DNA of 62,200 nt, counting the filler, from Kipferlia bialata (taxonomy: Eukaryota), in NCBI GenBank assembly GCA_003568945.1. It is 5 parts of 5 records of this genome, joined end to end, with 100 filler letters (N's around TTAATTAATTAA, not from the genome) between each part and the next. Parts side by side here need not be neighbours in the genome. Positions count along the whole stretch, not along the records: positions 1 to 17,900 come from BDIP01000502.1; positions 18,001 to 35,899 come from BDIP01000503.1; positions 36,000 to 53,862 come from BDIP01000504.1; 2 more parts are not named here. The stretch is one strand, 5' to 3'. A model generated the notes under the pieces. It had not been told where the DNA came from. It searched no databases and was given only the letters and a program-made list of their open reading frames with translations. This document shows positions 1-49,703 of this stretch, piece after piece (position 1 is the stretch's first letter; each line of letters starts with the position of its first letter). The position numbers and the translations under genes were made by a program.

Positions 1-3000
1 GTGAGAGTGGGGGAGAGAGTGAGGGAGAGAGTGAGGATGAGTGCATCAGCATGTCCGAGGGTGACAGTCCCCTCATCTCCAAGCACACAAGGACACCCCC
101 TCTATCCCCTACCACAGTCAGCCCCCACCCCATGTCCCCTGAGTACACTGTTGACCACATCCACGCCCATGACAGCTCTAGTGACTCTGCCTCTGACTCT
201 GACGCAGGCTTTGAGAGTGCCAGATCAGAGGAGGGGAGCCTCTTGGAGGATAGGGAGAGTGAGGGAGAGAGTGAGTCTGATGTCGATGTTGCTGAGGTTA
301 CTGTACCCGAGACCACCATCGAGCCCGAGGGCAGTGCCTCTGATGTTGACACAGAGGACGATGGGTACAGTGACGATGACGGGTATGACACAGAGCAGGA
401 GACAGAGGTACGAAGAATGATGTATATATTTGTGTATATGACTCTGTTCTGCATGGGCTGCCCCTCCCCCCTGCCACTTTATGGAACTGTCTATGACCCT
501 GCCCCTCACCCCACAGGTCGAGGCTGAGGGCAGTGACGATGAGACAGACGAGGACTCACGGGAGGATGAGAGTGAGGGGGAGATAGAGGAGGATAGTGAG
601 GGGGAGGAGGTCCCAACTGCCACACGGCTGCTCTCTCACTCAGGAGAGGGTACCCATGCTACACACACCACTGAGGGAGAGAGGGAGGGAGGCAGTGACG
701 ACGTTGATATGTGGAGTGCCTGTGAGGAGGATGAGAGGGCATCCCAGCTGGAGGTGGACTCAGAGGGGGAGAGTGAGGGGGAGAGTGAGGGAGAGAGTGA
801 CATGAGCGAGCTGGACCTTGGTGTCCCTCCCTCTCTCCCTCTAGATACCCTAGATGCCCTAGATGCCGTTGGGTCAGACATGGAGGGTGGACTGGAGGAG
901 TACCCCAGCATGGTACAGAGTGAGGGAGAGGGAGAGGCTGTGAGTGAGGGAGAGGGAGACATCTCCGTCCTAGAGTTTGGCACCCCCCCTCCCCCATCTA
1001 CCCAGCCAACGGAGTCCAGCCCTGTACACACACCCAAGGCAGAGACACAGAGAGAGAGGGAGAGAGAGGAGAGTGGCTCTGACAGTGAGGGAGAGAGTGA
1101 CGCCAGCTGTCTGGGGGATGAGACCACTGAGGAGGAGGAGGAGGACTCTCCCATCATCAATCCCTCTGCTAGGGTGCCCCTGTCACAGAGAGTGAGGGAG
1201 AGTGGCAGGAGGGGTGGCAGGACACTCAGAGGGGCGGTGCAGAGGACAGGTATGTGCAGCTGTATGTAACTATATGTATTTACTACTATGACATATAACT
1301 ATGTCTAGTTCTCACCCCCCAGGTCTGTTCGACTCTGACTCTGACTCTGACTCTGACTCTGCCCCATTGTCCATGACCAGGGGTGGCATGTCACTCTCTA
1401 GGACAAGCAGGAGACGCAGGAACAACAGGGTGGTTGAGTCTGAGTCTGAGGAGGAGGAGGAGAGAGAGGAGAGAGAGGAGAGAGAGGAGGAGGGTTCTGT
1501 GGGAGAGACTGGTGTGGCTGATGGCACTGTATCCCCTGTCACACTCAATGACACACCGGCATCCCCTGCGTCCCCTACATACTGTACCTCTCCTACCATG
1601 GGTAGCACCAGTCCCGTCCCTGCCTCTCTGGACAGCCCTGTACATAGTGTACACAGTGTACTGAGTGACATGGAGAGTGAGGGCGACGACGATGAGTATG
1701 GGAGTGAGAGTGACAGTGAGCTGCCCCCATCCCTCAACCCCAGTGAGAGAGAGGGAGAGGGAGAGGGAGAGGGAGAGGGAGAGGGAGACGGAGACGGAGA
1801 CGGAGAGGGGGATAGCCTCCTGGACTCTGACCCAGAGGACAGACCCAGACAGAGACCCAGAGAGAGAGAGAGACAGAGAGAGAGAGGGACTGCACACACC
1901 ACCACCTCCCGTGTTGGCGAGTCTGAGTCTGATGAGGACTCTCTCTCTGCCAGTGACTCTGAGGACGAGACATCCCCCATACTCACTCGTAGACAGAGGA
2001 GGAGGAAGAGAGCCCCCTCCCTTGTGTTGCTGAGTGACTCAGAGCTAGATGCAGAGAGTGAGGAGAGTGAGGGAGAGAGTGAGGGAGAGAGCGAGGAGGA
2101 GAGTGAGGAGGAGAGCGATGGCTACAGAGACGCCTCCTCCCTCCTCTCAGAGAGTGAGAGTGAGAGTGAGAGTGACCCCTTCGAGGCTGACTCACCCATA
2201 CCCAAGAGGGGCAAGGCTAGGGCTAAGGGGTCTAGGGGGGCTGCACAGAGACGCAGGGAGAGAGAGGCCCTGTATGACCAGGAGGAGGAGGAGGATGTGT
2301 CTGACATGGAGCCTGGCATAGTGTTCACACCCATTGACAGGGAGACAGCACCAGTGGACATACCATCGGAGGGCAGGCTCCAGAAGGTGGGGGGATATGC
2401 TCTATAGAATAGTATACTATCTACAACCTCCAATTGTTGGTCAGAGTCAAGGAATCCCTCAGTCTCTCGATACACACTCCCTCTGTGACTCACCCCAGGG
2501 CTACGAGTGCCTGTACCCCCACCAGAGGCATGGTGTGCAGTGGCTATATACCCTGTGGAGGCAGGGGCAGAGGGGGCATGGGGGTATACTCGCAGATGAC
2601 ATGGGCCTGGGCAAGACTATCCAGGTGGATACAATACTATATATATACACACTCACATTCTCCCTCTGCCCCCCTTACCCCAGGTCTCCTACACCCTGCG
2701 TGCCCTGTTCCACCTCAAGACTCTCTCTCTCTCTCTCTCTCCCCCTCACTCCCTCTCTCTTACCTCCAGGTCTCCTACACCCTGCGTGCCCTGTTCCACC
2801 TCAAGGCCATCAGACATGCCCTGCTGGTAGTCCCTGCCTCACTGATCGGCAACTGGCAGAAGGAGTTGGCCAAGTGGTGCCCCAACGCAAACGTGAGTGC
2901 ATAGATGCATAGGGATACTGATATGTATTGGTAGTTTTGTGGTATATGTATATACCGCCTTACCCCAGGTTGTACTGTTCCATGGTGCAGTGGGACCAAG

Positions 3001-6000
3001 GAGGAGGGCCATACAGCAGGTGGAGTGTACATACAATCATACGCACTCATTTGTATATATATGCGTGTGACTATCGATGTCCGTATACACTCTCTCATCC
3101 CAGGCCATGGGCTCTAGGAGTGTTGTCATCACCACCTATGGCACCATGGTGTCTGACCTGGCATCCATAGTCAACCCACTAGGTATATAGTATAGTATAT
3201 AGTATATTAATATATGTATATATAATAATAGATAGTGTGTGTGTATATATGCATATATGTATATAGTATACATATGCACCTATGGCACCATGGTGTCAGA
3301 CCTGGCATCCATAGTCAACCCACTAGGTATATAGTGAATACATATACATGTGACATGTTGGTGTAGGTATACATGCATATCCACTCACCCCAGACCAGTC
3401 TGACATGCGTGTGTGGGACTCTATCCTCTCTCTCTCTCTATTTATATTCATTGCAAATACTCACCCCAGACCAGTGTGACACGACTCTACCAGTACCTCC
3501 CTCTCTTTGTCTCTCTATTACTTATGGATTCTTCTCTTTTGAACTGATACTCACCCCAGACCAGTGTGACATGCGTGTGTGGGACTATACCATATCCCTT
3601 CTCTCTCTCTCTCTATATATATATGTAACTAATACTCACCCCAGACCAGTGTGACATGCGTGTGTGGGATGCTGCCAAGGAGGGTGCTGGCAAGTGGAAG
3701 GGCAAGGGCAGGGGGAGGGCAGGGTACGGCAGGGACGACGGCAGAGACCCAATGCACCCACCAGAGGGTACGTGGTATCATGTCTATATACGCTATGGAT
3801 AGCTCTTATGTGTACCCTTACCCCCAGCTGCCATAGAGTGCGGCTCTGCGTAGTGTGTTCCTTGTATAATGTATAATGTATATTGTATGTATGTGTATAT
3901 ATACATATATATACGTGTCTCACCCCCAGGTGCCATGGAGTGGGGCTGTGTGGTGTGTGACGAGGCCAACAAGATCAAGAACCCCAAGAGCCAGATGGGC
4001 ATGGCCATCAGGTACTATGAGACATATACCTACTTCTGTACATACATACTAACCTGTATGTATTCAATAGTCAAACCCCAGGTTCATCGAGGCCCAGACC
4101 AGAGATACTATGAATCTATATCTATATATATATATTTTGTGTGTATTATTATTATTATACGTGCATACCCCCCCACCCCCCAGGTTCATCGAGGCCCAGA
4201 CCAGAGTGGCACTCACAGGCACACCCCTACAGGTGGGGTCTCTCTCTCTCTCTCTCTCTGTATATCCCTATACTAACCCTAGAACCAGCTGCAGGACCTG
4301 TGGGCCCTTGTCAACTGGGTCACCAAGGGGCAGATACTAGGACCTCACAGGGAGTTCCTAAAGGTATATATAGTACTCTCTGAGACATTGCTCTCTCTGC
4401 GTCCCTCTCTATCACATTATGGTGTCAGTTTCCTCCCTCTCGTATTTGTAGTGTGTTTGATGAGTCTTCCCTCTCTCTCCCTCACCCCCCAGAAGTTCGG
4501 TGAGCCTGTCAAGAGGATGCGGTCCAAGGATGCCTCCCACTACGAGAGGAGACACGGGGCACAGATGCTGACGAGGTATACACTATCTGTATACTGATGC
4601 ACTGTGACTATATAGTCATATATATACTGGTACCCTGTTCTGACCTCAGGCTGCATGACCTGTGTGAGCCCTTCCTGCTGAGGAGGGACAAGGCCAGTGT
4701 ATCAAAGGCAGAGGCAGAGGCAGAGGCAGAGAGGGCTCTGCAGATAGAGGCCAGTGGTGATGGCAGTGTGGTACCCTCCCCTCCCTCCACCAAGGGGAAG
4801 CTGGACACACTGCCTGCCAAGCTGGACCTGGTGGTGTGGGTACCACTGTCCCTGACACAGCTGCTGATGTACCACACACTGCTGAGGTACGGTGTATTTA
4901 TACATTTATGTATTCATATATATATATATATATATGTATACATAAACTTATGCCCAGGTCCGGTGCCTTCCGGGCCATGCTCAATGCAGACAGAGAGAGG
5001 AAGAGAGAGTCCTTCAAGCTGATAGCACTGCTCAGGAAGATATGCGACTCGGGGGACATGGTGGGTGGCAGTGTCACCATCAATATGGGGTCTCTCTCTC
5101 TCTTTATATATATATACCTAACCCCAGGTCTCCGAGCATGACTATGAGATGTGGCCACCCGAGGTGACGGCCATGCTCAGGGGCCTACTCAGACAGGTGA
5201 GTGTCTCTCTCTGTCTCTCTTTACTCTCTTGCTAGCCTCAACGCCTTCCCACCCCAGGTCCCCCCCCGCCACCGTTCCTCCAAGCTGTCCTTTGTGCATG
5301 ACCTGTCTGTGTCACTGAGGGGGGTGGATGCAGACAGACCCGACCACAAGCTACTGGTCTTCAGTGAGCACACAACAACACTCGATATGATACAGGTGCC
5401 ATATACTGTATAGTGTACTTATGATAGTGTACTTATATTAACCTAGTGTCTATGCACCCCCTCACCCAGGCTGGGTTTGAGGAGCAGGGCCTGTCCTACC
5501 TCAGGATGGATGGAAGTACACCCATCAAGGACAGACAGGGGCTGATTGACAGGTATAGATTTAGTGTATGTATATTTGTGCATATATACGTATCCCTAAC
5601 ACCCACTCCTACCCCACATTTGCCATATAGAAATCACATAATTCTTCCCGTATATTCACTACATAATCTAACCACAGATTCAACGCCCCCTCCTCGTCCA
5701 CCTTTGCCTTCCTGCTGACCACCGGGGTGGGTGCCATGGGACTCAACCTCACAGCGGCAGACAGGGTGCTGCTCTTTGACCCGGGTAGGGTGTCCCTCCC
5801 AATACATTGGACATATATACAAATATATATATACCAGAACATTGGATATATGTACAGATCTATTACTAACCCCAGCCTGGAGCCCTGGCATTGAGTTCCC
5901 GCCCTCTCTCTCTCTTCTATTCCTCTCTCCCTCACCCCAGCCTGGAGCCCTGGCATTCTCTGCCTCTCTCTCATATCCAGTTCCTATTGCTAACCCCCAG

Positions 6001-6204
6001 CCTGGAGCCCTGTAATCGATGTCCCCCTCTCTCTCTCCCTCTCTCTCTGTCTTTCTTCCCAACCCCAGCCTGGAGCCCTGGCATTGAGGAACAGTCCATC
6101 GACAGGGCATACAGGATAGGCCAGAAGAGACCAGTCGTGGTGTACAGGCTCATCACTGTCAGCACAATCGAGGAGAGGATGTTCTCGAAGCAGGTACTGT
6201 CACC

Positions 6205-6238
<34 letters not shown>

Positions 6239-6968
6239 GCCCTTTATTCACCCTAGGTGTTCAAGCATGGCCTCTCCCTGGCAGCAGTGGAGAAGAAGAA
6301 CACACGGAGGTTGGTATATCAGTTCTACTATGTATCTGTCCATGTGTATGTGTGTATCTGTGCGCATATATATATATATTTATATATATATGTGTGTTTG
6401 TGTATACTCTGACCCCAGGTGGTTTGGCCAGAAGGAGATGGGCGGTCTTGACACCCCCCCTGCCATCCCCCACTATGATGCATGTACTGCCAGGGCATTG
6501 TCAGATGCAGCAGGGGATGTCTTTGAGAGACTGGCAGACCACTATGAGACACTGATACCCGGTGTGTGCACCCACCTTAAGGGTCTACTTGGTCAGTACA
6601 GACTGGGGGCAGATGCGGCACTGCCCCTATTGAGGGCCGAGTATAGGACAGCCCTGCTGGGTGGGGACGGGGACTGGGACGGAGACAGACACGCGGCTGG
6701 GGAGGAGGGAGAGATGAACCCCCCAGTGGCCCTGTCTCTCCATAAGGAGACCACATCCCTCAAGGAGAATCCCTTAGCGGAGGGGGGTATGGGTATGGGT
6801 ATGTCTCAGGAGATGGGGCAGGGGCGGAGGGTGATGAGCATCAACACTGGTGGTAGGGGCAGGGCCAGGCCTAGCAGTGTACCCACACCCTCCCAGGCAC
6901 AGACCGACAAGGCCAGGGAGATGGCAATGCTCTTTGGGGCACCTGGATCCAGACTCGGCCAGAGGTAG
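1..6968 (+). CDS. SNF2-family ATPase, ERCC6L/PICH-like, multi-exon, 5' end outside window, long acidic N-terminus
   Basis: Spliced exons give [25 protein letters not shown] (motif I), [110 protein letters not shown]. Stop TAG ends at 6968. Confidence 0.9.
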
Positions 6969-7344
6969 AGAGACCCTATTTGAGAGAGAGGGTGTGGAGT
7001 ATGTGTTTATCACTGTTGACCCCTTTCCCATTTGGGTGACATCACACTGAGTAGTGGATGCACCCCACACTAAATATCGTTTCGTATATAGAGTAGATCT
7101 AATGCGAGAGCTTATTGAAGGAGTAGTCGGGATCTCACTATTACAGTCACTGCCAAAATCAACAACCAACAACACAATTGACGAAACGACAAATATATTT
7201 GAAAATGGTAAAAACACGTACCAAATACACATCCACGCTACCAACTTAGTTGTAAAAGGAGACAGGACGACAATAAGCCACAACAACCACTCCCCACCCA
7301 TACCCTCGGGCGGTCAGAGTCTAACGGAGTCTACCCGAGCCGTC

Positions 7345-9944
7345 TTACTGGCTCTTCTTGCCCTTCTTGCCCTTCTTGGCCTTCTTCTCAGGCTTGGCGG
7401 CACCCTTGGCGGCCACCTTCTCGGTGAGCCTCTCCCGCCTCTCCTCCCTGACCTGATCATGCCTCTTCATCCGAGAGTACACACGGGCCTGCTTCTTCGA
7501 GAGCATGGCCTTCCTGACCTCTAGCTCGTCCTCCTCGAGGGTGACGTTGGCCTCAACCACATCTCCGGCATCGGCGCCCTCCTCGACAACCACGTCCTCC
7601 TCCTCGTCAGAGACAGCCTCGCCCTGGCTCTCCTCATCCTCGGCGCCCTGCTCCTCGCCTCTCTCGTCCCTCTCCCTCTGCTCCAGCTCAGCCAGGTCCA
7701 CGCCCAGCTCCCTGGCCTTGGCCTGCTTGACGTACATCTCAATCTCGTTGGCCCTCTCGGGGATGTGGCCGTCCTGGAACCTCATGTCGATCTGCTGGGC
7801 GAAGGGGGAGAGGTGGGGGGGCAGGGCATCCACAGAGGTCAGGTACTCGGAGGTGGGGAGGCGCACCACGTGGTTGAGAGAGTCAAAGAACCACTGGGGC
7901 TGGAGGTACTCGCAGCCGGGGATCCTGGCGCCAACAACCTGGGGTCAGTATCAGTATGATGAGACATCCACACACACATATAATATGTATACTATAGAGT
8001 ATATACATACAAGAGTACATACACGAACCTTGTCCATGTGGTGTGGGGGCCTGTCCACCACAAAGTGGGTGGGTGTGAGGTCCGAGTCCTTGAGGCATGC
8101 GAAGGGGATGACGGTGGCACCGGCAGAGGTGCATGTCAGCCACAGGGGGTGGTGGGGGATCTCGCGGCTGAAGGCAACGACCATGCCCTGCAGTGAGGGG
8201 AGGGGGAGGAAGAGAGATAGGGAGAGTGACTGGGACTACTATTATCTCTCTATATACACTGTCCCTCTCACCTTGAAAATCTTCTGGGATAGTGTCCATG
8301 TGGGTGTCTTGGTCTTCTCCTCTCTCTCCACAACCTCTCCGTCCTCACCACTGCCCTCACTCTCCTCGCTCTCCTCCTCGACCTCCTCCCTCTCCACAGG
8401 GGTCCACACCTGGGGGTCAGCATCATTCTGCTACATCAATATATATATATATATATATATACATATCAAGGAGTATATATATACATACCTTGGTGGTGTA
8501 GTCCACGAGGACAGGGGGGTAGGGCCGGGAGATGGAGCCGTAGAGACGGAACAGCACAAACCCGAGCATGGTGGAGTAGAACTCAATGAAGGTGCGCATC
8601 ACACGGAAGTCGACATCGGCATTGGGCTCGGCTGGGGGTGAGAGTGAGAAGGAGAGGGGGGGGGGGCAGAGAGAGAGCAAGAGAGAGAGAGAGAGTGTGT
8701 GTGTGGTCCGTACCCAGGTACTGGTGGGGCTCCACCCACACGATGGGGACGCCCTCGACATTGGCCTGGTAGTACATGCCCTTGATGGAGGCAAAGGACT
8801 TGGACACAGCCCTGGGGGTGAGGGAAGGGAGAGAGAGAGAGGCAAAGGACTAACACAGCCATGAGTGGTAAGGATTGCTTGGGATATACCCAGGAGTGAC
8901 CGATACATCCACCATGTCTCCCTACCTAGTCTCAGCCAGGTATGCGTGCCACTCATCGAGCAGCCTCTTGCAGTTAGAGATGACCCTGGAGTCAGAGAGA
9001 GGTGGAGAGACAGAGAGAGCAGAGAGGGAGATGACCTGGTCAGAGAGATGGGGATAGTCGAGAGGAACATACTAATATATGGGATACTGTCTGATAGTAA
9101 CCAGTACACCAACCCTTCCCCAACACCCTTCTCCATGCACCCATAATAGGGGCATATAGGGCATATACGCATACCTAGGGTCGACTCCCTTCTCGGCTGG
9201 GAGGTGTGCAAAGAGGCAGATGAGGGACAGACAGTCTCCCAGCTCCCTGAGGGCATCCACAAAGGTGGGGTACCTCTCACGCACAATGTGGTCAAGGGCA
9301 TAGGTGGGAGCCATGACCTAGAGTGAGGAAGATGTATAGGGAGCAGCAGTATGTGACTCTGAATCACACAACAATTACTCACTCACCTTCAGCATCTTGG
9401 CACGGCTACGCTCGCCTCTGTGGGCCCTCTTGGCAACCTAGGAGTAAGAAAGAAGATACATCACAGACAAAACCTGTTCAAACATGAATGATGTGGAAGA
9501 AATGTAGTAAAGATATGCAGACACTCTGAGACTTGTACACAATCTCACCTTGCGCTTGTGGACCTTGATCTCCCTGAAGCTGTTAAGCACTGGCTCATGG
9601 GCCAGGAATGTGATATCCTTCTTCAGGTAGTAGGTGGTGTTGGGGCCACTGAGCTTCTTGCTAGGGACACGGGGGTAGATGCCCTTCAGGATGCACAGAC
9701 GACGGAAGTCAGCCAGAGAGATCTGGAGCTTCTTGATGGCCTGGCTACGGGACACAAAGTTGGTGCCTGGTCCGACGGTTCCCTGAGTGAGCAGTAAGAG
9801 GAGATAGAGGGGAAAAAGTGACAGTGTGAAGAGATTCCAGCCTATACCACATTACAGATGTCTTAGAGCACCCAGACGACACAAAAATATTCAAAAGGAA
9901 CCTAGCCGTCGTCACTGACTAACCTTCTTAATGATCTTGCCCAT
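7345..9944 (-). CDS. PES1: Pescadillo/Nop7 homolog (PeBoW complex), multi-exon
   Basis: [84 protein letters not shown]-like [27 protein letters not shown], basic C-terminus. Confidence 0.97.
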
Positions 9945-10059
9945 TTTGAGAGGTTCAAAGAGACCAAGGTGTCGATTTGCATATCTGGACACAGAGTCAG
10001 ATTGGTAAGTCACACTTCTAACATTTTTACAAGTTTTACCTTAATTGCTAAACTTGAGG
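9945..10059. promoter_or_regulatory. Putative bidirectional promoter (115 bp between divergent ATGs)
   Basis: Pescadillo ATG at 9944 (-) and next gene ATG at 10060 (+), with an AT-rich core at 10015-10055. Confidence 0.55.
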
Positions 10060-12414
10060 ATGGCTGGCTGTCTCTCACATCTTTCTGCCAGCACTACTGC
10101 AGATGAGTGGCGCTACTGAGAGCGGCAGGCAGGGCCTGTCCCCAGAGTGCACTGCAGTCCCATATGGGAAGCTCCTGGTGGTGTTCATTGACCAGACATT
10201 GGCCATAGTCGACACAGGTGCATTTACATAGTGCCCATGTATATACTCATTCATGTAGGGCAACTCATATCAGAGATGAAGCTGGCTCTGTGGGCCCAGA
10301 CGCTGCCCTCTACTGTCCGGACGGTGACAGTGGAGACTGTGGAGGGTGAGAAGGAGGAGGGAGAGACTGAGGGTGCCAGGCAGTCCTTTGCCGTGTGTGA
10401 GTGCTACGAGGAGGAGGCAGACAAGGAGATAGTCAGGGTGCCACTCCCAGCATCTGCCCCCAGGACAGCTCTTGCTGCCATTGCTCACAGGTCAGTGTCA
10501 CTCTCATAACAGCATATGAATCTGATACACCTAGTAACACCCCTCATGTATAGGTCTGTGACCCGGCGAGTGTTCAGCACTGGTGAGGTGCACGCACCCA
10601 AGAAGGGATTGTCCAAGGTGAGAATGTGTGGAGTCAGTATCAGCGCCTATTACCTCTAGTGTCTTACTCCTTATATACTCTCACACAGTTTCTCTCCCCT
10701 CTCACCCTCAGGTGAAGGACGTCGCTGCCTCCATCGAGGCTGTCCTTGCCCACCCCAACACTGTGTCTGCCATGCTGCCTGCCCTGTGCACAGCAGTCCA
10801 GGACCTGAAGAGAGTGGCACTCACCACCAAGGTACAGAAACTCATATACTAAGAGATAGGTGCAGTGTACACTCTCTTACCCCCCCCTTCTCCCTCACCC
10901 CCCCAGGCTGCCTTCTACGCCGCCCTAGCCGTTGTTGCTGAGGAGCTGAACGTCCCTCCCCCACCCCTGGCCGCTGCTGAGTGTGAGGACCTGGTCACCC
11001 ATGCTCTGAGCGATACTGATGCCAAGCACACCCAGGCATACACCGTGTCCCTGTCCCTGCTGGCACCCGTCCTGCCCACCTCCTGTATCGTATCTATACT
11101 GGAGGGGGAGAGTGGGTCTGACAGCATCGAGGGGGAGGCAGAGAGGGCCCATGCCCTGACCCTGTCGGCTGATCTCTTCATGGCTGTGGTGGGGTCCAGG
11201 ACAGCACCAGGTGTGTATTGAGCTATAAGTGTATATTTATGTATGTATGTGTATTCTGTACGTGTGGCTGTTGTCTATGCCGCATCTAGTCGGGACCGTG
11301 GTGTCTCTGTATCTTGTGGATGGCTGTTACTTGCAGTGTCAGATTCAGAGGCTCACCCCCAGATGTGCTTGGGAAGCAGATTGGATCCAAGCTGTCCCCA
11401 GCTGCTGCCCTGCAGACACTCAGGTATATATATATGTGTATATGTATATATATATATATCTGATACAGTATATACCTATAGGCAGAGTGTAGGGTGTATA
11501 TATGTGTGTGTACAAGCTGTCCCCAGCTGCTGCTCTGCAGACACTTAGGTATGATATGCATGTATATATGCAGACAGCGTATATACTATTATTATTTTGA
11601 ATAGAGCGTATCCATGTATATATACTGGCTGTCCCCAGCTGCTGCCCTGCAGACACTCAGGTATGGATACACCTATGATATCGAACATATCTATACCTAT
11701 TCTGGTATCCGTATTAGTATATATGCATGTGTACCCCCTGTATCGTGCATATCCATGTCTCACCCCCCAGGACCTGCACCCTCATTCTGACTGGCTACCA
11801 CACCATGAGCCCCCTCGTCTCAGGTGACACCCCCTCTGCCCCAGTGGAGATGGGGGCATTCACCCGGCTCTTCTCAGCCTCCTTTGTAGAAAGGGTCCAG
11901 GCCAGGGCGGCCCTGCGCCTCCGGTCCCCCCCCTCCCCCACCCAGCTCACCTCTCTGCTCTGCGGGATAGTGCACCCAGGCGTCATGCCCCTCATCAGGT
12001 ACATAACTTAATACACACACACGCACACACATATATATACTCATAGTATATACCTCTAAGCCCCAACGGCCGATGCCGAGTGGCTGGAGGGCATGTCACG
12101 TATTCATATTAATTATAATTTATATATGTATGTCTATGCATGCACTCACCCCAGGGCCAATGCCGGGTGGCTGGAGGGCATGTCACGTATTTATATATAC
12201 TATTATATATTTATATATGTGTGTCTATGCATTCACTCACCCCAGGGCCGATGCCGAGTGGCTGGAGGGCATGAAGACCCTCCGCACCGTTGTCCAGGCC
12301 CTAGTAGAGTGTGGGTCAGCCTCGGGTGCCCTGGTGGGTGCCATTGAGGAGATACTGTACTCCAGGATGGGGGAGCCAGAACCCCTCTACTACGTGGAGC
12401 ATGTCAGTCTCTAA
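10060..12414 (+). CDS. Multi-exon hypothetical protein, possibly NOL11/Utp8-like
   Basis: Canonical introns link a plausible reading frame ending ..MKTLRTVVQALVECGSASGALVGAIEEILYSRMGEPEPLYYVEHVSL*, resembling the NOL11/Utp8 C-terminal Y-x-[IV]-E-x-x-x-[LF] end. Confidence 0.45.
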
Positions 12415-13721: not shown

Positions 13722-13759
<38 letters not shown>

Positions 13760-36906: not shown

Positions 36907-36959
36907 GGCAGTTGTTTTGGTGTATAGGGAGTCGACACACTCCTCCGCTAGCTGATACC

Positions 36960-37333
36960 ATGTCTAAGTGCTTGAGGATATCTATACACAAAGTAGGAAA
37001 GCCTTCAATCACGGAATGGGAGATTCTAGATACAATTATTCTAGATATTGTCCTATGGGAGTCTGTAGATGGAAAGATTGCTTCCACTACAACCAATACT
37101 TCAACTATGATGACACATCGGTGACTGCACTTGATCAGGGCCTGAGTCAGGCACTGTCTGCGCTTAAGTTGAATGAATTGACACCAGGTGGCTATACTCA
37201 TTTGAGTCAGTTTCTTCCAGATACCTCAGTGACTTCACGTATAGCACATAATTGCGACTATTATGGTCACAATACGGTGATTCTGGGAGAAGAACTGGTT
37301 TCTGAGAGGTTGGAGGAGGAGGTGAGGTCATAG
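36960..37333 (+). CDS. Possible small hypothetical protein, start unresolved
   Basis: Open frame of about 120 codons with complex sequence. No recognisable motif. Confidence 0.25.
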
Positions 37334-37634
37334 ATTGCTTGGTAGCCAAGGCAGCCTTGGCCCAAGTATAACCTATACTCAGTACATTACTGAGCCAGAC
37401 ACAAAACGCAAAGTAATCTATTGCACATACAACTCAATGACCTGAGTATCCTGGTGGCTCCAACCCTATCAGTCGCTAACAACCGCTAAGAGTCATTAGT
37501 TATTGAACACACATCGTGGGTCATCGGTCGGCTTGTTGCGAAGTCCTATTCTGACCCGAGACTGTGAACCTACACAGAGGCTGTCACAACGCACAAAGTA
37601 CGGGGCCATCTAGCTGATCTCTATGACCTCTGTC

Positions 37635-40600
37635 CTATCTCCTCAGCCTCCTCCTGGCCCTATGGAGAGTGCGCCGCTGGGAGGAACCTAGAGGTGAGGC
37701 ATCTATAAATATGAGTATGAAAATATTGGAAGTGACTCCGGGAGCTACCTGGAGGTGAGGTATACATATAAACATATAGTATATAGTAGGAGAGTGCGCC
37801 TCTGGGAGGAGACTGAGGGTAAGCAGGGGGAAATACATATATAGTATACACTATAGAGTATGCGGGCTGCTGGAAGGTACCTGAGGGGAAAGGAGGCAGA
37901 AGAGTAGGTGAATGGAAAGAGACGCACATATATGTGATGTACGTATATGCGATATATATATATATATATATATATAGCTGGGAGCAACCTGTGATATCTA
38001 GATAAGATATATCAACGCACATACATTTGAAACTATTGCATAACGTATTGTACTACATATGACTCACCATCACTAGCGGCAGGTGTGGCAGGGGCAGCAG
38101 CTCCAAAGCCTACAGGTGAGAACAAGAAGAAACAGCGAAAGAGAGTACAATATACATTTAGAAGAGGTAATAGAGTATCAATGATATGCAGCAGCTCCAA
38201 AGCCTACAGTGAGAACAGCAGAAGAGTCCTCTATAGTGTGAACACAAAACAGAGAGTATGAGTGGAGGTACATCAAGCGGCGCAAATGGTAAACGCATAC
38301 CTGATGCGGGTGCTGCAGCAGCGGCTCCGAATCCACCTGATAATGAGAGTAATACAGTTAGCATCATACCTCTTCAAGAATTCATCGAAGATGTATATAT
38401 GACGATGTATGTATATCCCTCTGTACCTGTGGCAGCTGCACCGAACCCACCCCCTGGGGCAGCAGCACCAAAGCCACCTGGGAGTGAGTGATGGCCATAG
38501 TATATACACAATACCAATACGTTCTAGATGAAATAGCCATTCACGCTTCCACATGTTCTGGTGATACTAATGCGAGATTACTGCATGTTTACCTGTTGTA
38601 GCAGCGGCACCGAAACCTCCAGCGGCTGGGGCGGCGGCAGCGCCAAAGCCTAACAGTGAGACTGTGAGATTACTCCAAAGACAACATAACTAATCCATGT
38701 AGTATTTGGATATAATGGTAAATGAAATGAATATGAGTACATCTACATCTGCATCCACATATATATATGTATGGATACAAAGCATGTCTACATCTATACA
38801 TAAAGAGTATGAGTACCTGACGCAGGGGCAGCAGCTGCTCCAAACCCTGAGGCAGCAGGGGCGGCTGGGGTTAGGGCAAGTGATATACCGAGAAGACGAA
38901 GCAGAGAACATCATAGTATATATAGAAGTGTATATACCTGCAGTCTTTGCCCCGAAGAACCCTCCGGTAGAAGGGGCAGCGGCAGCAGCTCCAAAGCCTG
39001 AAAAGGTTAGAGGGCAGGTAATCAACACGTCTATCTGATACACTACTGCAAATGCTTTTAGGTTATAGAAACTATTAAATGTGACTACCCATACCTGAAG
39101 CAGCTGGGGCGGCGGTTGCGGCGGCGGCTCCAAACCCAGTGGTGGAAGCACCGAATCCTAGGGATGAGACTATCACTCAGAAGAGAGGCATCAATACAGA
39201 GGAGTATCAAATCACTAACAAGTACTATGTAGTAATACACACACACACACACATACATATATATACTATATACATATCCATGTACCTGTGGATGCAGCGG
39301 GGGCAGCAGCGGCTCCGAAACCTGGCATCAGTACAAATGACCACATACGCAAAAGTGGCGAAGAGGTCCCCAGGAGAATATATTGTATGTGTACATATAT
39401 GTGTCCATTTGAGTGTACCTGTGGAGGCAGGGGCAGCAGCAGCTCCAAAGCCAGTGGCTGCAGGGGCGGCGGCTAGAGATTAGTCGTGGAGCCGAACGCA
39501 TCAAACATATGTATATGGACTAGTGAGAAGTGCACACATATATAATATACCTGCAGCAGCGCCGAAACCTCCTGTGGCGGCTCCAAAGCCTAGGTTGTCA
39601 GTATCAAGATGGAGAAGGATTAGTGATGTGATTGAAGGAATCATTATATCCACACCAGATACTCTTTAATCTACAATAATGTACAACTATGCATCATTGA
39701 CGTCTAACACACATAGACACATACACTACCCCTATATATGCATACATATACACTACCCAGTACCATATAAATGCATACATATACACTACCCAGTACCTGT
39801 GGCAGCAGGTGCAGCGGCAGCGCCGAATCCAGTAGAGGCAGCAGGGGCAGCTAGAGTGAGGGAATACCATTGGCTGAATATATCTGTTGACAATGCACAG
39901 ATTGAAGATAATATGATATGGTGTGAGTATACCTGCTGCTGCTGCGCCGAATCCAGTTGTCCCTGTAGCGGCGGTACCAAAGCCTGATATGTGAGAACAA
40001 TAATCACACTAAATAACAATTTCAAATGTGGATTGACACACAAAGGCTAAAGAAATATGGCGTATAGAACCTGTGGCTGCGGGTGCGGTAGTTGCGGCAG
40101 CCCCGAACCCTGCACCGAATCCAGTCGCTGAGGGTGAGGACCCAAGTGAGTACATATATGCCTACTGTACATGCAGCGATGAACTCTATATGGCATGGAG
40201 GGAGAGAGGAGGACCCACTCTCAAATATATACCACACACACACATATATATATACCTGCTGGTGCAGCGGCAGGGGCGGCAGCAGCAGCTCCGAAGCCTG
40301 GCGTAAGATCTCAGTTGCCACCAAGTAATAGATATAGTAGACTCGTTCTACGAGTGGCTGAAGAGGTGGCAGATACCCACAAGTATAGAGGGCGAGAAAC
40401 CTCAAGAATGTCGTGGAATAGTATATATCCCATACCTGTGGCAGCTGGCTTGGCGTCTGCGGTGGGGGCAGCGAAGGCAAAGCCTCCAGCGGCTGGCTTA
40501 GCGGCTGGGGGTGAGGTTACACATGTGTGAATACAACAGTTACGTATCATATCAGGAGGACTGCGCCAACGAACAACATACATGTGTATAGTATACATGT

Positions 40601-43600
40601 AAGAGTATGTATATGTGTATATATATATGTAGTATGTATATATATATATACCTGCTCCTCCGAACATGCCTGTCCCAGCGGCTGGTGCTGCAGCTGCGGC
40701 ACCAAAACCTAGACATCAGACTCACAAAAAATAGACACCGTTATTTCGGGTAATAATATTATTATAAATACCCATATCAAACTTCTTGCAAAATCAGATC
40801 TGAATCAATATTGATACCTGTGGCTGGGGTGGTGGTAGACGCAGCGGCGCCAAAGCCTGGAATCAACAAAATATCGAAGAACAAATTGACTCTAATACGG
40901 GAAGAATAATATCACCAATATAGTAATACCCGTCCCAGCTACTCCGAACCCATAAAGAGGAAGAGTATACACCTAACCACATTGCCAAAAAGTTGTAAAT
41001 ACCGAACAGTTCAACTCAATACGTGTGCCATTACCTGTTCCAGCTGTAGCTGCTCCGAACCCAGTGGAAGTGGCAGGGGCAGCAGCGGCACCAAAACCTG
41101 GGGTCATACATGGATAAGGAACTCTTATCTAGAGATTTCATGGAAATAGTCACTATCAGAGTGTATAGTACCTGTTGTGGCAGGGGCAGTGGTAGCAGCA
41201 GCACCGAAACCTAGAAGTGAGATATAGTCAAGACCAATATTCATCACTTGAGTGCATTCATACAAGTAACGCTAAGTATCCATGGAATATATGGAATATA
41301 TATATATATATATATATACCATATATTTACATATTAATACCTGTGGCAGCAGGTGCAGTGGTTGAGGCAGAGGCCCCAAACATGCCTATTGTCAGTGATT
41401 GACACAATACCAATGACAATAGAGGGGGAAGAAGCGATAATGACCGAATGCCGACTGATAACGAAGGGGTACTTGGAGAGAACAGCCTTCGTTGATTAGT
41501 ATAATATAAAGTGAATAGGGTATAGTCTAAAGTATACCTGTGGTGGCTGCAGGTGCGGCAGTAGTAGTGGCAGCAGCGCCAAAGCCTAATGTGAGACTTA
41601 AAAAGGGACACAAGACACAGCGGCGTGTAGATAAGCACATAATGACAATATATATATGTATACATATGCATGTAACAGTGTATACCTGTGGCAGGTGTGG
41701 TTGTAGCAGCCGCGGCAGGGGCTGAGAATCCAAAGCCTATATGTAAGGAGTTGAATAGTTGCCACACTACCAAGATTGTATAATAATCTGCTCCAGGCCA
41801 CTATGATCGATAGATGGTTGGTTGTATAGCAATAGTAAAGACTTCTTATACCTCCTGCGGCAGGTGCGGCAGCTGGTGCTGCAGTGGATGAACCAAACAT
41901 GCCTGGGGGTGAGGATAGGCCAAATACAGTATTTGTACACAGTTCAAACCTAGACATATGAGTGTACTACATAGTATCATACCTGTTCCTGCTGGCTTGG
42001 CGTCTGTGCTGGCAGTGGGTGCTGTGAAGCCAAACCCACCAGCGGCAGGGGCCTCGGCAGGCTTGTCAGCTGAGTGTGAGAATAGGAATCAAGACAAAGA
42101 GATGAGATCAGATACCACGACAGCATAGCTAGATACACATTCATCATGATTAAATAGGTGAATAAATATATAGTATATACCTGCAGCGGGTGCCTTGGGA
42201 GCAGAGAAAGAGAAGGCTCCTGCAGCTGGGGCAGCAGCTGGGGTAAGGAAAGAGAAACCAAAGCAACACCACACGTATGTGTACCCATGCAATCCGACAC
42301 GCGATATATAGAGAGATACATACAGTCAATATTCCTATAGGTATATGCTATATGGTATATAGTACCTGCGGCAGGTGCGGCAGCTGGGGTCTCAGTGGCA
42401 GGGGCAGCTGGGGGTGAGTATATATTCATGATAACAGTACAATTAGAGTGTCCCACACGTATAAACTAAAGTACAAAGTATATTTCAATAATGCTTCGTA
42501 CCTGGTGCCGCTCCGAAGCTGAACCCTCCCGCAGCAGGGGCTGGAGCTGCCTCTAGGGGTCAGTATATACATTGAGTGTCACACTTGTACTATCCTGGAA
42601 CCATACAATGTGGGATCCACATACCCTTGTCGGCCTCCTTAGCGGGTGCCTTGGGTGCAGAGAAGGAGAAACCTCCTGCGGCAGGGGCAGAGGGAGCGGC
42701 AGCTAGCATGAGGGAACAATGAAATACAATAGTAATATATGGACAGTTATAATAACACCATATTCAGATACAGCTATGCATAATTGCATGTAATTATATA
42801 CGGGCAGAGGGACCAGCAGCTGGACATTAGCCTATATACAATGAGCGTGAACAGCACTATATCACATAATGTGTACCTCCGAACATTGGCTTCTCGGCTG
42901 GGGTCTCTGCTGGCTTGGTGGCAGCTGAAGTGAGAAATGAATATATATACACACACACATATATATATATATATATGCACCATGATACCGAACGTGTGTA
43001 TCCGATGGGAATGATAAGAAAGATGAGAGAAGATATAGAGAAATACATGCTACTAGCGAATACGTACCTGCACCGAACATGCCAGTGGAGGCAGGGGCGG
43101 CATCGGCTGCTGGGGTGAGAACTAAGGTACATCAATAAATATGAGATATAATAATAGACCAACCCATTGCAATGAATACATAGTAATATGTGCAAATACC
43201 GTTACCCTTGTCTCCCTCCTTGGCGGGTGCCTTGGGGGCAGAGAAGGAGAAGCCTCCAAGGGCAGGGGCAGCTGGGGCAGCAGCTAGGTATGAGTGTGTA
43301 TCAATACTGAACATGTGACAGTGTTCACATATATATATCTTAGTAGATATACCCCTACCTGTCTCAGCCTTTGCTGCCTCAGTCATAGTGTGTAATAATA
43401 TAGATACACAAATGAAGAGTACTGTCTCAATATATATAGAGACCAATACCTGTCTCAGCCTTTGGTGCCTCAGCTGGGGTCTCAGTCTCAGCCTTCTTGG
43501 GGGCACTGAAGCTGGGAGGGTCAGATTGACTAAGAAACACTCTGTTCACAAACTGTCATACTCTATACCCCATATCCCAATGCGGCATTGTAGCTACACT

Positions 43601-44958
43601 CTAGGATTGGGTATTCGTACCTGAATGCAAAGCCTCCCGCGGCAGGGGCGGCAGGAGCAGCAGGCCTAGAGATGAGGAAAACACTATACCCTACATTCAT
43701 ACTCATTGTGGTGTCAATCCATGTTCTTAATTACTGGTGTCCTTCACAACAAAAGAATAATTCTCAGTATATATAAATAAATGTGTATAATCATAACACT
43801 CACTCTGCTGTCTCCTCCTTCTTCTCAGGTGCCTTGGGTGCACTGAAGGAGAAGCCTCCGATGGCAGGGGTGGTAGAGGGGGCTGGAAGTGAGCTTAAAG
43901 TATATAGGCGATTCTAAACGATATATATATATACTGCCAATACCTGCTGCGGGTGCCGGGGTGTCACTGAATGACACCTTCTTGGCCTCGGGCTTGGCTG
44001 GAGGGTTAGTAAGGTATGAGGGTCAGCACAGTATTAAGAAAACAAGATTCATGATTAGTCTCGGGCTTGGCTGGAGGTCAGCACGGAATACATATGTGAT
44101 AAAAGGGAACACTCATAATAAGGAGAATGAATGGTCAAGCAGTGTTGGCCGGGTCAGTCCGGTATATGTATACATATATATCTAGAGAGAGATATAAAAT
44201 GACTATCCTCCACATCACTAACAGATATATTACCTGTTGCTGCAAATGCTGACATAGTGAATGGTGTCCCCTTGTCCTCCTTGGGCTGGTCGGGCTCAAG
44301 GTCGCCTAGGGATGAGGGATATCGTGTATATATGGTCTGTTAGTATACATGAACACAAATGTGCATATATATATATATATATATATGTGGGTGGTCTGGC
44401 TCAAGGTCGCCTGGGGGGTGAGAGAAGAATTCCCTAGGTTGGTGATACCTCTATATTCATAAACATTATAGTGGAATCAAGGTTATACAAAGGTACACTC
44501 GATACCTAGGCTGAATGCAGGTGGTCTGGGCTTGTCGACCTTGGCCTTGGACTGGGAGTGAGGGGTGATATATATATATATATACAAATATAGTAAAAGA
44601 GTCTATAATACAATCATTGTCGGCCATGGACTGGGGGTGAGACGCGCAAATGATAGATGACTCTGCGACTATACGTATAATAATGTATGTATGAAACATT
44701 TACTCGAGAACCAATATCACCGATCTTGGGAATCGAATGAGTGGTATTAGTTTGTAGTGCATGCATACCTCTCCCACACTGCTGATCTGTGTCTCCCTCT
44801 CCACCTGGGTGGCCCTGGCACCTGCAACGACAGAGGTGCTGAGGCCTAGAGTCAATGAATTTAGTTATACATTGGTACATATGTACACATATATAATGTA
44901 GAGATAGAGACTATGTCTCTGGCACCTGCCACGACAGAGGTGGTGAGGCCTAGTGTAA

Positions 44959-45001
<43 letters not shown>

Positions 45002-45944
45002 CAAGTCCCTGGCACCTGCAACGACTGAGGTGCTGAGGCCTAAAGTTAGTAATGCATTCAGTTTCATATACATTGGTACATATACGCGTATATAAACATG
45101 TATAGAGAGAGAGATTATGCCAATGGCACCTGCAACAACAGAGGTGCTGAGGCCTGGGATAAGAGGGAGAGAGAGAGAGAGAATGAAAGACCTTGGTACC
45201 TGCAACAACAGAGGAGCAACAATAATTACTGTACAATTTGAAATAATATGGAATATAGTACCACCCTGTGCATACCTGTGGCTGTGTTGCCTAGGAACCG
45301 TCTCCTGACCACCTTCACCACTCCGTCGTCCTCGTTCTCTCTCTCTCTCTCTCCATCTCCCTTCTCCTTCTCAACCTCAGCTGCAGAGGGACGGCCCACC
45401 TAGGGGTAAGGACTAAAGTATAATACAATACACTTCTGTAATGATGCACTTAGCTATCATACATGAACCTCAGCTGCAGAGGGACGGCCCACATAGGAGT
45501 TAGAGTTAATATAGTATCATAAATGAAGTACATGACACACATGTATATGCAGTACCCTTACCCTGATGGATGAGGCCAGACTCCTGGACAGAGGCTGGAC
45601 AGAGGCCTTGTCAGAGGGACCTGAGGGTGGGGGTGAGTGACATACGACATAGAACTACCGAATATACACTATATCAACAATATGGAAGAAAATACAAAGA
45701 AAATGAATGAGGGATGATGTTGGTGGAATACTATCACTACCAACAACTTCATTTCGGATGTCAGAGAGGGTCAGAGCGGTACATAGGTATGCGGGTATGT
45801 AAAGACACTTATAGAATACATAGTTGCATGTACTTACCCTTGGCTCCTTGGAAAAGTCCCGGTGGGGCACACATACGCCCTGGGGTCAGATACACTCTTC
45901 ACATGTATATACCGTCAACACTAGCCATCGGCACACTCCCACAA

Positions 45945-45979
<35 letters not shown>

Positions 45980-46360
45980 TATACACACCTGTCTGTCCGA
46001 ATGACATTGTGGGTGAGTCAGGGGTCACCATGTCCAGGGGCTCGGGGGAGCCTGGGTGAATATAGATACTATATCCAATATTGATAAATGTGCATATATA
46101 TATATATACAATGTGTATATAAGTTGTATCATGTCCAGGGGCTCGGGGGAGCCTGGGGGTGAGTTGATATATATATATGTGTATATGTGTGTTTGTGTAC
46201 ATATAGATACAATTCCACTATTGCGGGGAGGCAATCGTGTCAGACAATTGTACTTGTGGAGTGAGGTTACCTGTTGCCAGCTCTCTCTTTCTCTTTGCGG
46301 GTCTCTGCCTGTCCTTCTTATCGACAAGGGCACTCATCCTAGATATCAGTATGGTATATG

Positions 46361-46393
<33 letters not shown>

Positions 46394-46868
46394 TCTGTCC
46401 TTCTTATCGACAAGGACACTCATCCTAGATATCAGTCTGGCAGTATGATATATATATATAGAGAGAGAGAGAGATGGAGAGAGAGAGACAGAGGGAGATA
46501 TAGAGACTCTTGTCGACAAGGGCACTCATCCTAGATATCAGTATGCTGTACAAAGACTTATATGCACATACAGAGAGGGGGGGGGGAGAGGGAGAGAGAG
46601 AGGGAGAGAAAGAGTGAAGTAGCTACCTGAGCACATCATCGAGGGCTGTCTTTGCCTTCTTCTCAGTCTCTGTCTCTGTCTCTCCCTCTCCCTCTCCCTG
46701 TGTCTCTGTCTCCACCTCCTTGGGCTTGGCCTCAAGCACTCTCTGGAGTGAGAGGAATACTATATGCTACTATCATACATAAGTGTATTGAGAAATGATA
46801 ACCTATACATATATATGTATACCTCAGGTGACACCTCCCTCTGCCTCTTCTGCCCCACCCTGGCACTG

Positions 46869-46906
<38 letters not shown>

Positions 46907-47076
46907 CATACATACATACACATACATATACATACCTCTGGCGACACCTCCCTCTGCCTCTTCTGCCCCACCCTGGCACTGTCTGTGACAGAGTCTCTCT
47001 CTCTCTGCCTCTCAATGTCCTTGGCATGCTCAGACACAAGGGGGGTCGGCTGATGTCAGAATATACTAAAGAGGCG

Positions 47077-47107
<31 letters not shown>

Positions 47108-48030
47108 TATCTCAATGTCCTTGGCATGCTCAGAGACAAGGGGGGTGGGCTGGGATCAGTATCTGTATTACAATATACATTAGTGTATATACATAGAGAG
47201 AGCGAAGGAGAGAGTCTCAATGTCCTTGGCATGCTCAGATACTAGGGGGTGGGCTGGGGTCAGCGACAGTTACATTACTATCTGTATATATATGTTCACC
47301 TGCCCCACCCCAAGGCACCCATCCTGACATATAATATATAATATATATAGTACATATATCATATATAATATTTACACTATACCACTATACGATCTATATA
47401 TGGATACTCTCTCTATATACACAATATATGTATATGCTCACCTGCCCCACCCCTGAGGCACCCATCCGGGGCATCACACTCTGCTCCATCTGGGGGGTTA
47501 GGAGATATAATATGTATATGACATGTGATATATAGTATGTGTGTGTGACTAGGGCATCACACTCTGCTCCATCTGGGGGGTGAGTATCTCTATCTAGGGG
47601 GCACACCATAATGGTGCATAGAGAGATCATATCACAGAACTGGCAACAGTCTGTCATATATATATCATATTTATATATCAACATATACCTGCATCTTGTG
47701 GAGGAGTGCCCTCTGGTGGTACACATTGGCCTGGGAGGCACTCTGGCATCAGTTATAGAAGTATACTTGAATGTGTTAATAAAGATCTCTCTCTCTCTAT
47801 ATATATATAAGTATAGGGAGTGGTACACATTGGCCTGGGAGGCACTCTGGGGTGAGGGAGGCGTCCACATTGTATGGCTATTCACTAATCTCTTACATTC
47901 AAGCACAGTTTACCATACATATCCACATACCATATACTGCTGCTGCTGTGCCATGGCCATCTGCTGCATCTGGGCATACTGCATCTGCTGGGCATACTGA
48001 CGGTGAGTACACAATACTAATACAAATATA

Positions 48031-48065
<35 letters not shown>

Positions 48066-49703
48066 ATACGAGTTGTATGGGCATACTGCATCTGCTGGGC
48101 ATACTGGGGGTGAGAACACAATACCTATGTACTGTATATACATTAATGTATGTATATGTATGACAAATGAACTTTAAGAATTGTATGGTCATCTGCTGCA
48201 TCTGCTGGGCATACTGGGGGTGAGGACATAAGACTAATATACTGTATATATATATATATATATATTTGGATGCACTCATATATATATATAAATATACAGG
48301 TACCATACGAATACATACTGTATGGGCATACTGTATCTGCTGGGCATACTGGGGGTGAGGACATAATACTATTATAGTATACTGTATACACACACACACA
48401 TATATATATATGCATATATATATACATATATATATATATGTACCATAAGACTTGTATGGGCATACTGCATCTGCTGGGCATACTAACGGAGAGGACACAC
48501 GACAATGATCTAGTATCCTACAGAAACACCATATACTGCTGTCGGTACTGAATACAAGGAGAACTATACACATACGCCACATTCTGCTGTCACTGTGGGT
48601 TCTGCAGGAATATATATATACAAATAGATAGATTTAGATAATCGTACCATGTACTGCTGCTGGTACTGCTGCTGGTACTGTGGGTACTGCATGTACATGA
48701 CAGGCTGGACAGGGGCCTAGGGGGTAAGAGTGTATATATATACATATAAGGAATATATATATATATGTATACAAATATATTAAGGGTAGGTATATGTACA
48801 TGACAGGCTGGACAGGGGCCTGGGGGTGAGATGTATTCTAATATGCGTACCATATACACTTCTATTTCAATTCACCATGTATATCATGTATACCTGTGGC
48901 TGTGTGTTCTCTGACTCTGTCTCAGTGGAGGGGGCACGCTTGGCCTGATATAAGGGGGTAGAGAGAGCGCAAGTATACCCTACACTATACATATATACCT
49001 GGTGCATAATGGGGTGGAGAGAGACAGAGGTCGACAGGGAGAAAGAGACACAACCACACGCATAATACGGGTAGATGGAGAGAGACTGATAAATGGTAAC
49101 ACTTCCATATACACTACTTGTGTATACCTGAGGGTGGGTGGGGTTGCTGTCCCAGAAATGGTGTGTGATGGGCATATATAGGAGAGAGTATGTAGGTATA
49201 GTATGTGTCATACCTGGGGTGCTGCGGGTGCTGCCTCAGCTGTGGGGGATGCCACATCACGCACAGGCTCTGGGGTGAGGGGAGACCAAGGGTATGTATA
49301 GACACGCATATTAGTGTATTGGTGTATTGGGTGGGTGGGGGGGGGGGGGTAGGTTATCAGAGTAGACATGCACTCTGGTAGCGGTATATACCGGTGCATG
49401 GGGATACATATATGTATGACTAGTATAATGGGACGAATATATGCAGTATGGTACGTACGTACGTACCCCCTGCATTGATCATACATGATTGTAACATGGA
49501 GAGGTCCATCTCACAATAATGAGTATCCTCTAATCATATTCTCCACAAGGTATAAGGCAGCTGTATCAATGTACCCGTCATATATACCCACTGTGTGTGT
49601 GTATCTGCTGGGTGTATGTACCTGGGGATGGCGACCGTCTGCGCCTCCTGAAGAAGGGTATCCTGCTCCTCTTCTTGCCACGCTTCACACTCTCCTTCGC
49701 CAT
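37635..49703 (-). CDS. FG-repeat nucleoporin, Nup1/Nup153/NUP136-like, roughly 55-60 exons
   Basis: Start MAKESVKRGKKRSRIPFFRRRRRSPSP, Q/Y-rich segment, FSFS/FGF repeats, many GFGAAA repeats, terminal exon GSSQRRTLHRARRRLRR*. Confidence 0.8.

Follow-up and report, generated by a model that had tools for sequence, protein, structure and literature searches.

Splice-junction copies in the introns of Kipferlia bialata as likely scars of short tandem duplications

Introduction

Repeats that include a splice junction are already known under the name 'mirages' (PMC3087553), and the structures described here belong to the same class. As portrayed in the passages of that report on amphioxus Adh3 and the globin genes BflGb6 and BflGb9, mirages are junction-including head-to-tail repeats, as in our case, and they occupy a few animal loci, with units 81–100% identical along their length. 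A related arrangement is found in human F7, where, according to the portion of PMC1557585 that deals with intervening sequence 7 (IVS7), the first unit of a 37-bp variable number tandem repeat spans the exon-intron border, the identical donor pseudo-sites downstream are functional but silent, and the most upstream donor is used. Here we examine a 62,200-nucleotide stretch of the genome of the free-living protist Kipferlia bialata (GCA_003568945.1; hereafter the window), many of whose introns carry echoes, by which we mean copies within an intron of the neighboring exon's end together with its splice signal.

The window consists of five contigs joined by N's (positions 1–17900, 18001–35899, 36000–53862, 53963–60557 and 60658–62200). 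The relevant sections of the genome paper (PMC5874029) describe a short-read SPAdes draft of ~51 Mb at ~150x, a description that we assume to apply to the window, with an assembly size that matches the k-mer estimate and one main coverage peak; they report the species as diploid, with 124,912 introns genome-wide, and a term search of the paper finds neither duplication nor microsatellites mentioned. In a survey of 174 spliceosomal proteins, 87 were found in K. bialata, together with no small nuclear RNA candidates (PMC6679479).

Results

A junction-anchored search across nine gene models, which comprise 171 exons and 162 introns, finds echoes in 45 of the introns: 85 copies (49 acceptor, 36 donor) in 53 arrays. 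The initial annotation had placed such copies in at least five genes on three contigs and both strands, and they are confirmed in the assembled sequence, both where it had located them and beyond: six genes carry them, spread over three contigs and both strands. On the plus strand these are an SNF2-family helicase gene (5/20 introns), the gene at 10.3–12.4 kb (2/6) and KIPB_002844 (18/31); on the minus strand they are a WD40 gene (3/6), the gene at 16.9–17.8 kb (1/5) and an FG-repeat gene (16/52). Echo frequency differs strongly between genes (0/23 to 18/31; heterogeneity P = 8e-5), the same search detecting none in the introns of the pescadillo gene (0/9), the 18–22 kb gene (0/23) and the 50–52 kb gene (0/10). 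By present criteria there are one to five copies per array, rather than one to six as first annotated, and one array probably conceals more within a 938-N gap.

Each repeat unit contains a single junction and measures 59–193 nt (one unit spans an N gap), with a median of ~100 nt. The exon-derived part is 11–50 nt long (median 25), shorter than the 20–60 nt initially given, and the near-identity noted for it stands at 95%. Both boundary types are represented, with AG kept in 46 of 49 acceptor echoes and GT in 32 of 36 donor echoes. Spacers are at least 43 nt long, with a median of 76 nt compared with 87 nt for plain introns, and their AT content is 70%, higher than that of coding sequence (40%) and of introns in echo-free genes (54%). 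Echo arrays occupy 8.7 of the 27.2 kb of intron sequence, and introns with echoes have a median length of 284 nt, compared with 87 nt for those without. Intron-only duplications, sought in the 117 plain introns, gave just four matches, in three introns.

The copies also have a consistent polarity, as had been reported. When 14 nt from either end of each exon were compared with introns, allowing at most two mismatches, the 5′ end of an exon recurred in its upstream intron in 28 of 162 cases (one of them a poly-C false match) and in its downstream intron in 0/162, whereas the 3′ end recurred downstream in 22/162 and upstream in 1/162, the latter because two neighboring exons have similar ends. 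Non-adjacent introns of the same gene gave 12/4710 and 7/4710 exon-end matches. Polarity had been read as the sign of a special process, a reading we do not retain, because any head-to-tail duplication with one exon break leaves only the last acceptor copy, or the first donor copy, joined to the exon.

Making a functional mRNA appears to require that strong upstream acceptors be skipped, and this part of the initial annotation is supported by several comparisons. Use of an echo site instead of the real site would cause a frameshift or stop in 73 of 75 cases. In solved SNF2 homologues, the exons that flank three of the echoes are contiguous: three acceptor echoes separate helicase exon 18, which corresponds to ERCC6 residues 905–934, from exon 19, whose match picks up again at residue 936. 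The same continuity holds for exons 4 and 5 against Snf2, where residue 132 is followed by 137 at exon position 5. The deposited model P0023, itself a prediction and not RNA, skips every echo in KIPB_002844. Echo acceptors score 8.9 bits against 9.1 for their real partners, 22 of 39 being at least as strong, and in 19 of 28 arrays the first echo acceptor lies 57–144 nt from the donor, which is a normal intron length. Echo donors are weaker than their partners (4.2 vs 6.0, P = 0.004).

Most echoes lack a usable partner site, as had been claimed, the exceptions being a donor-like site of normal strength at 5 of 46 AG-bearing acceptor echoes and an acceptor-like one at 1 of 32 GT-bearing donor echoes. 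These low counts led us to reject duplicated whole exons, each copy with acceptor and donor, apart from 35225–35245 and possibly 48103–48482. Stepwise re-splicing, which had been offered as a way of coping with upstream acceptors, finds no backing in the exon starts: GT begins 8 of 30 exons with acceptor echoes and 45 of 162 exons overall, AG-GT is not enriched, and ratchet (recursive) splicing is on this ground unsupported.

That a local duplication process is at work, as proposed, is borne out by whole units in tandem descent. Intron sides can be aligned in 21 of 84 pairs of an echo with its real junction and in 11 of 46 echo–echo pairs, so that 32 of 130 copy pairs have minisatellite-like whole-unit similarity, with a mean aligned identity of ~80%, and the remainder are at null level on the intron side. 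Spacers had been described as mostly unrelated TA/TC microsatellite; the null-level pairs agree with "unrelated", whereas the alignable pairs do not, and much spacer sequence is AT-rich yet non-repetitive. Dimer periodicity, with alternating A/B spacers, at 45153–44845 and 29716–30054 speaks for nested descent, and ages range from a near-identical young array at 30397–31795 to decayed echoes at 25867–26030 and 3828.

In a geometry simulation, duplications of the observed sizes were placed at random on the exon-intron architecture of the gene models. Acceptor-only events made up 25.5% and donor-only events 25.8%, together 51% with a single junction; 12% stayed within an intron, and 37% involved a whole exon, a whole intron or exon sequence only. 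Without this last group, ~80% cross one junction. Random duplications of ~100 nt that spare the protein would therefore be ~80% single-junction, and the junction-seeking mechanism that had been suggested by the centring of copies on junctions becomes unnecessary. Three further routes were considered and either rejected or found unsupported. Whole-intron duplication followed by silencing of the chimeric exon, as a general route, meets spacer starts that resemble the upstream donor region in 3 of 48 cases and spacer ends that resemble the downstream acceptor region in 5 of 36. Whole-exon duplication with truncation would yield both polarities, and spacers resemble the opposite flanking intron in just 4 of 51 cases. 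As for erosion of longer exon parts, sequence beyond the boundary retained similarity in just 9 of 80 cases, mostly as gapped extensions.

The exon-derived part remains 94.5% identical in the 63 pairs that show null-level similarity on the intron side, 17 of these having no difference in the exon part, although detection favors well-kept exon parts. Simulation indicates that point mutation alone would need ~45% divergence to hide intron-side homology this often; slippage in TA/TC tracts probably explains some of the spacer divergence, not all. Junction-anchored alignment yields 90 distinct echo–exon differences, of which 50 are synonymous, 54 are at third positions and none creates a stop, and local alignments give 56 synonymous differences in 106. 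Scored in the two wrong frames, the 90 differences include 9 and 19 synonymous ones, and a clock simulation with neutral echoes and an exon changing at synonymous sites only gives 38% ± 6% (P ~0.003). From this excess we infer that part of the echo–exon difference arose in protein-coding lineages, which suggests that functional alleles either renewed the exon parts or gave rise to them. The remaining 40, which are non-synonymous, look neutral, as in decaying echoes: they run GC→AT in the echo by 18:6 and are no more conservative than random (P = 0.25), which leaves coding constraint on all differences unsupported.

The arrays lie as follows. Within the helicase gene, intron 2672–2769 holds an acceptor echo before exon 2770–2892, the case of exons 4 and 5 above, with an exon part at 2684–2719 that is identical at 36 of 36 positions. 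A donor echo (3277–3326 plus GT, with one synonymous difference) follows exon 3104–3182 in 3183–3335, and three acceptor echoes (3394, 3470, 3560) precede exon 3645–3767 in 3383–3644. Region 3816–4183 contains a decayed acceptor echo at 3828 (exon 3930–4011) and an intact one at 4082 (exon 4184–4232), and 5864–6068, in the conserved helicase C-terminal region, contains three (5876, 5941, 6001) before exon 6069–6193. The helicase gene itself (51–6968, plus strand) has a very long acidic N-terminal region, and its best structural matches include Rad26/ERCC6, ISWI and INO80. Farther along contig 1, the gene at 10.3–12.4 kb has two donor echoes at 11424–11665 after exon 11363–11423 and two acceptor echoes, the first now without AG, at 12056–12245 before exon 12246–12414. 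In the WD40 gene, two donor echoes (12890–13107) follow exon 13220–13108, and acceptor echoes at 13812, with an alignable spacer, and at ~13409 lie within 13346–13824. The gene at 16.9–17.8 kb has one donor echo, with its GT lost, at 17010–17086 after exon 17179–17087.

KIPB_002844 is the richest in echoes by fraction of introns. Its exons 2–20 (22523–30060) are accompanied by 17 arrays, among them three donor echoes at 23835–24120 and, around exon 29668–29715, two acceptor and four donor echoes in alternating dimer units. The young acceptor array at 30397–31795 has at least five echoes in near-identical ~80-nt units, with the 938-N gap (30609–31546) inside it, before the real exon 31796–31863. 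Five arrays accompany exons 23–28 (32013–34177), where an acceptor echo at ~33258 lacks 9 nt of the exon. Below the detection threshold, 25857–26040 contains three decayed acceptor echoes of exon 26120–26179, two of which share a spacer. More acceptor echoes occur at 21966–22334 (plus strand), upstream of the deposited start; the open frame continues 5′ of the annotated methionine, so KIPB_002844 is probably longer than annotated. The claim that echoes offer a route to new exons finds its instance in the same gene, at 35111–35326, where a duplicated unit has been kept as an annotated 21-nt in-frame exon (35225–35245) with homologous intron ends, a candidate for combined exon and intron gain.

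The FG-repeat gene has acceptor echoes before its last two exons (37688–38215), six arrays along exons 14–25 (42703–45504), including echoes 45153, 45039 and 44949 with alternating A/B spacers before exon 44845–44769, and ten along exons 4–11 (46052–48830). The latter include four echoes before exon 47996–47931, three of which (48482, 48348, 48103) could form in-frame mini-exons of 39, 45 and 39 nt; those at 45153, 45039 and 44949 could form 24-nt ones. The intron at 48945–49213 has two internal acceptor-like sites, each directly followed by donor-like sequence, which may be old echoes or recursive sites. The 3′ half of the gene is a run of symmetrical mini-exons: the FG/GFG-repeat region 37635–43900 has more than 30 short exons (~36–87 nt), almost all of them flanked by introns of one and the same phase, an arrangement that indicates expansion by whole-exon duplication.

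Two of the nine gene models come from exact spliced mapping of deposited proteins, and seven were built from splice motifs and open frames; all are open end to end with echoes skipped. A pescadillo exon is 100% identical to K. bialata protein P0001, and an exon on contig 2 is likewise 100% identical to K. bialata KIPB_002844 (P0023). Homologue searches with the last helicase exon and with one FG-gene exon gave no match, so those two models were built here and are not deposited ones; relatives of P0023 and P0001, sought in metagenome contigs, were not found. The label "SNF2-family helicase" derives from homologue comparison and "WD40" from Pfam, in which P0023 and four exons of the 18–22 kb gene matched no family. 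"FG-repeat" describes the translated sequence, which may be nucleoporin-like. The 18–22 kb gene (18100–21910, minus strand) has 24 exons, no echoes, and short, less AT-rich introns; it may resemble a glycoside hydrolase family 65 enzyme, with no Pfam match from the four exons. At 57030–60410 (minus strand), a gene opens with a ubiquitin-like N-terminal exon (a weak Pfam match), continues in long exons that encode repeated beta-rich domains and closes with a hydrophobic C-terminal stretch; its product is possibly a surface protein. On the fifth contig, 60743–60900 (minus strand) contains a 23-nt copy of the inner part of the E2F-family gene exon 60959–60853, downstream of it and without the exon end, which is possibly a degraded donor echo.

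Discussion

We propose that echoes are head-to-tail units of ~100 nt over one exon-intron junction and that they likely derive from ordinary short tandem duplications. Since gene medians for exon length are ~55–140 nt and plain introns measure ~87 nt, a duplication that leaves the protein intact would in most cases cross exactly one junction. Copies of a whole exon or a whole intron would be purged unless the protein tolerates them, as with the FG repeats and the 21-nt exon. Unequal exchange would then grow and shrink the arrays, and exchange with, or conversion by, the functional exon or its allele on the homologue would keep the exon part near-identical and import synonymous variants; conversion is expected to act on the exon part because this is the main sequence that copies share. 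Slippage and indels would let spacers drift, and echoes that escape exchange would decay. The use of the last acceptor and the first donor, which the proteins require, would amount to cross-exon proximity, that is, to the site pair that gives the shortest exon. As the mechanism, we prefer that the AT-rich spacer marks buried sites as intronic; in the part of PMC3355732 that concerns plants, AU-rich elements are required in introns. Ordinary duplication scars, tolerated through shortest-exon site choice, are in our judgment the probable explanation.

A number of observations weigh against this proposal. Random placement predicts a median exon part of 46 nt where 25 nt is observed, and 37% of intron parts below 43 nt where none is; with a flat distribution of sizes, 19% of units would fall below 59 nt, and none does. 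This size misfit calls for additional selection or for a mechanism with a size bias: copies that are close or rich in exon sequence may interfere with splicing and be lost to selection, or else the duplications may have a preferred length. Intron-side homology is not demonstrable in 63 of the 84 pairs with the real junction, and identity past the junction has a median of only 5–6 nt. The synonymous excess is modest, with an array bootstrap of 43–68%. Echo acceptors are stronger than a neutral-decay simulation allows (6.8 ± 0.5 bits, a figure that may overcount changes in C-runs). Finally, passages of PMC9225289 state that introns shorter than 250 nt favor pairing across the intron, the reverse of what the echoes need, with exceptions tied to GC differences; plain K. 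bialata introns are in this range (median 87 nt), and a single echo gives ~190 nt.

The duplication account has a competitor in the idea that each echo was taken from another allele. Repair of an intron break would use a diverged homologue that pairs only in exons, so that the copies were never identical and their intron sides evolved independently; this we regard as rather unlikely, and we are equally reserved about its second half, in which synthesis runs across the junction and is rejoined without homology. As a version of the allele exchange invoked above, birth from a diverged homologue is the stronger rival, and it would cover in one step both the synonymous excess and acceptors that are unalignable yet consensus-strong. 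It also accommodates A-T transversions at 7 of 127 synonymous versus 1 of 693 non-synonymous opportunities, spacers roughly as long as introns, echoes at 13409 and 33258 that differ from their exon by 3 or 9 nt in frame, and the reported diploidy (PMC5874029, in part). The agreement of assembly size and k-mer estimate with a single main peak in the same sections of that paper makes unalignable introns unlikely between the homologues of that culture, however; 40 of 90 differences are non-synonymous and neutral-looking, and spacers diverge fast even in arrays of proven tandem descent. A mixture of conserved exon parts, synonymous differences and diverged introns is what one would see if a short-read SPAdes assembly (PMC5874029, in the sections on assembly) had strung together short repeats or the haplotypes of a culture that was heterozygous or non-clonal, and one array does hold a gap. 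We consider such an artefact very improbable, as the longest exact copy–copy match in any of the 53 arrays is 42 nt, the exon-to-spacer junction of each echo would be present in neither hypothetical allele, and the copies show nested descent and decay. The sole clear seam in the window, likely an assembly one, lies at 57941–58049, where an exact 54-nt repeat flanks a single N; it breaks the frame of a long coding exon and is unlike the echoes.

It is also conceivable that a junction-targeted process, such as splicing-coupled DNA damage or pre-mRNA-templated repair, copies 30–50 nt around the splice site and adds low-complexity filler between the copies. The short identity on the intron side, the narrow unit size and the scarcity of intron-only duplications would suit it. 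We think it improbable, given that geometry and selection already make ~80% of survivors junction-spanning, that intron-only copies would become as unrecognizable as spacers do, that alignable spacers show copying of whole units, and that donor echoes contain intron bases, so that spliced mRNA is not the template. That echo sites are used, whether as ratchet sites, regulated decoys or alternative mini-exons, might be expected from the lasting strength of the acceptors, the in-frame mini-exons that could form and the one duplicated unit annotated as an exon. The helicase homologues leave no room for an insert, though, and neither the exon starts, nor the rarity of normal-strength partner sites, nor the spacer ends (3/48 and 5/36, as above) favor use, which leaves this the slimmest of prospects alongside artefact.

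A bolder reading, which we offer as doubtful but worth stating, is that K. bialata introns archive allele fragments: repair between homologues that pair in exons only would deposit or renew copies of junctions in introns by the tens of thousands, and the spliceosome, reduced as it is, would ignore them through cross-exon choice despite 90-nt introns. If so, the genome would amount to a natural collection of experiments on duplicated splice sites and would drive both the growth of introns and the birth of exons. If the window is typical, which is uncertain given how strongly genes differ, 28% of the 124,912 introns counted in the genome paper's overview (PMC5874029) would have duplicated splice sites, and existing RNA-seq would be a genome-wide test of how the spliceosome chooses between equal sites. 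The echoes also illustrate how duplication can lead to longer introns and new mini-exons, and they bear on whether K. bialata introns are ancestral or lineage-expanded, a question that the same overview leaves open (PMC5874029).

Our literature search, made mostly in papers available without subscription and in main texts only, found no such pattern reported in Kipferlia or other metamonads. Compared with the mirages of the passages cited above (PMC3087553), K. bialata differs in having echoes in 45 of 162 introns of a short-intron metamonad, a narrow unit size, exon parts decoupled from their spacers and a synonymous bias that those passages do not mention. The repeat described for F7 IVS7 (PMC1557585, in the part cited) is confined to the donor side of one locus and has homogeneous 37-bp units. 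The rule of cross-exon proximity, in the portion of PMC9225289 that sets it out, pairs exon-defined sites across the exon, which is the choice that echoes require on both sides, and it is associated there with introns longer than 250 nt. The scanning model derived for F7 is insufficient here, because oriented scanning explains use of the first donor and not of the last acceptor. Introns and exons are reportedly gained by internal tandem duplication, as in the Rogers model and in work attributed to Gao and Lynch (2009). The 21-nt exon at 35225–35245 fits such a gain; most K. bialata echoes just add intron length and decoy sites and leave the mRNA unchanged. Set beside these systems, the polarity and junction-centring of the echoes are largely ordinary; what appears unusual is how dense they are, that full-strength acceptors have to be skipped in a genome of short introns, and that differences from the exon lean toward synonymous ones.

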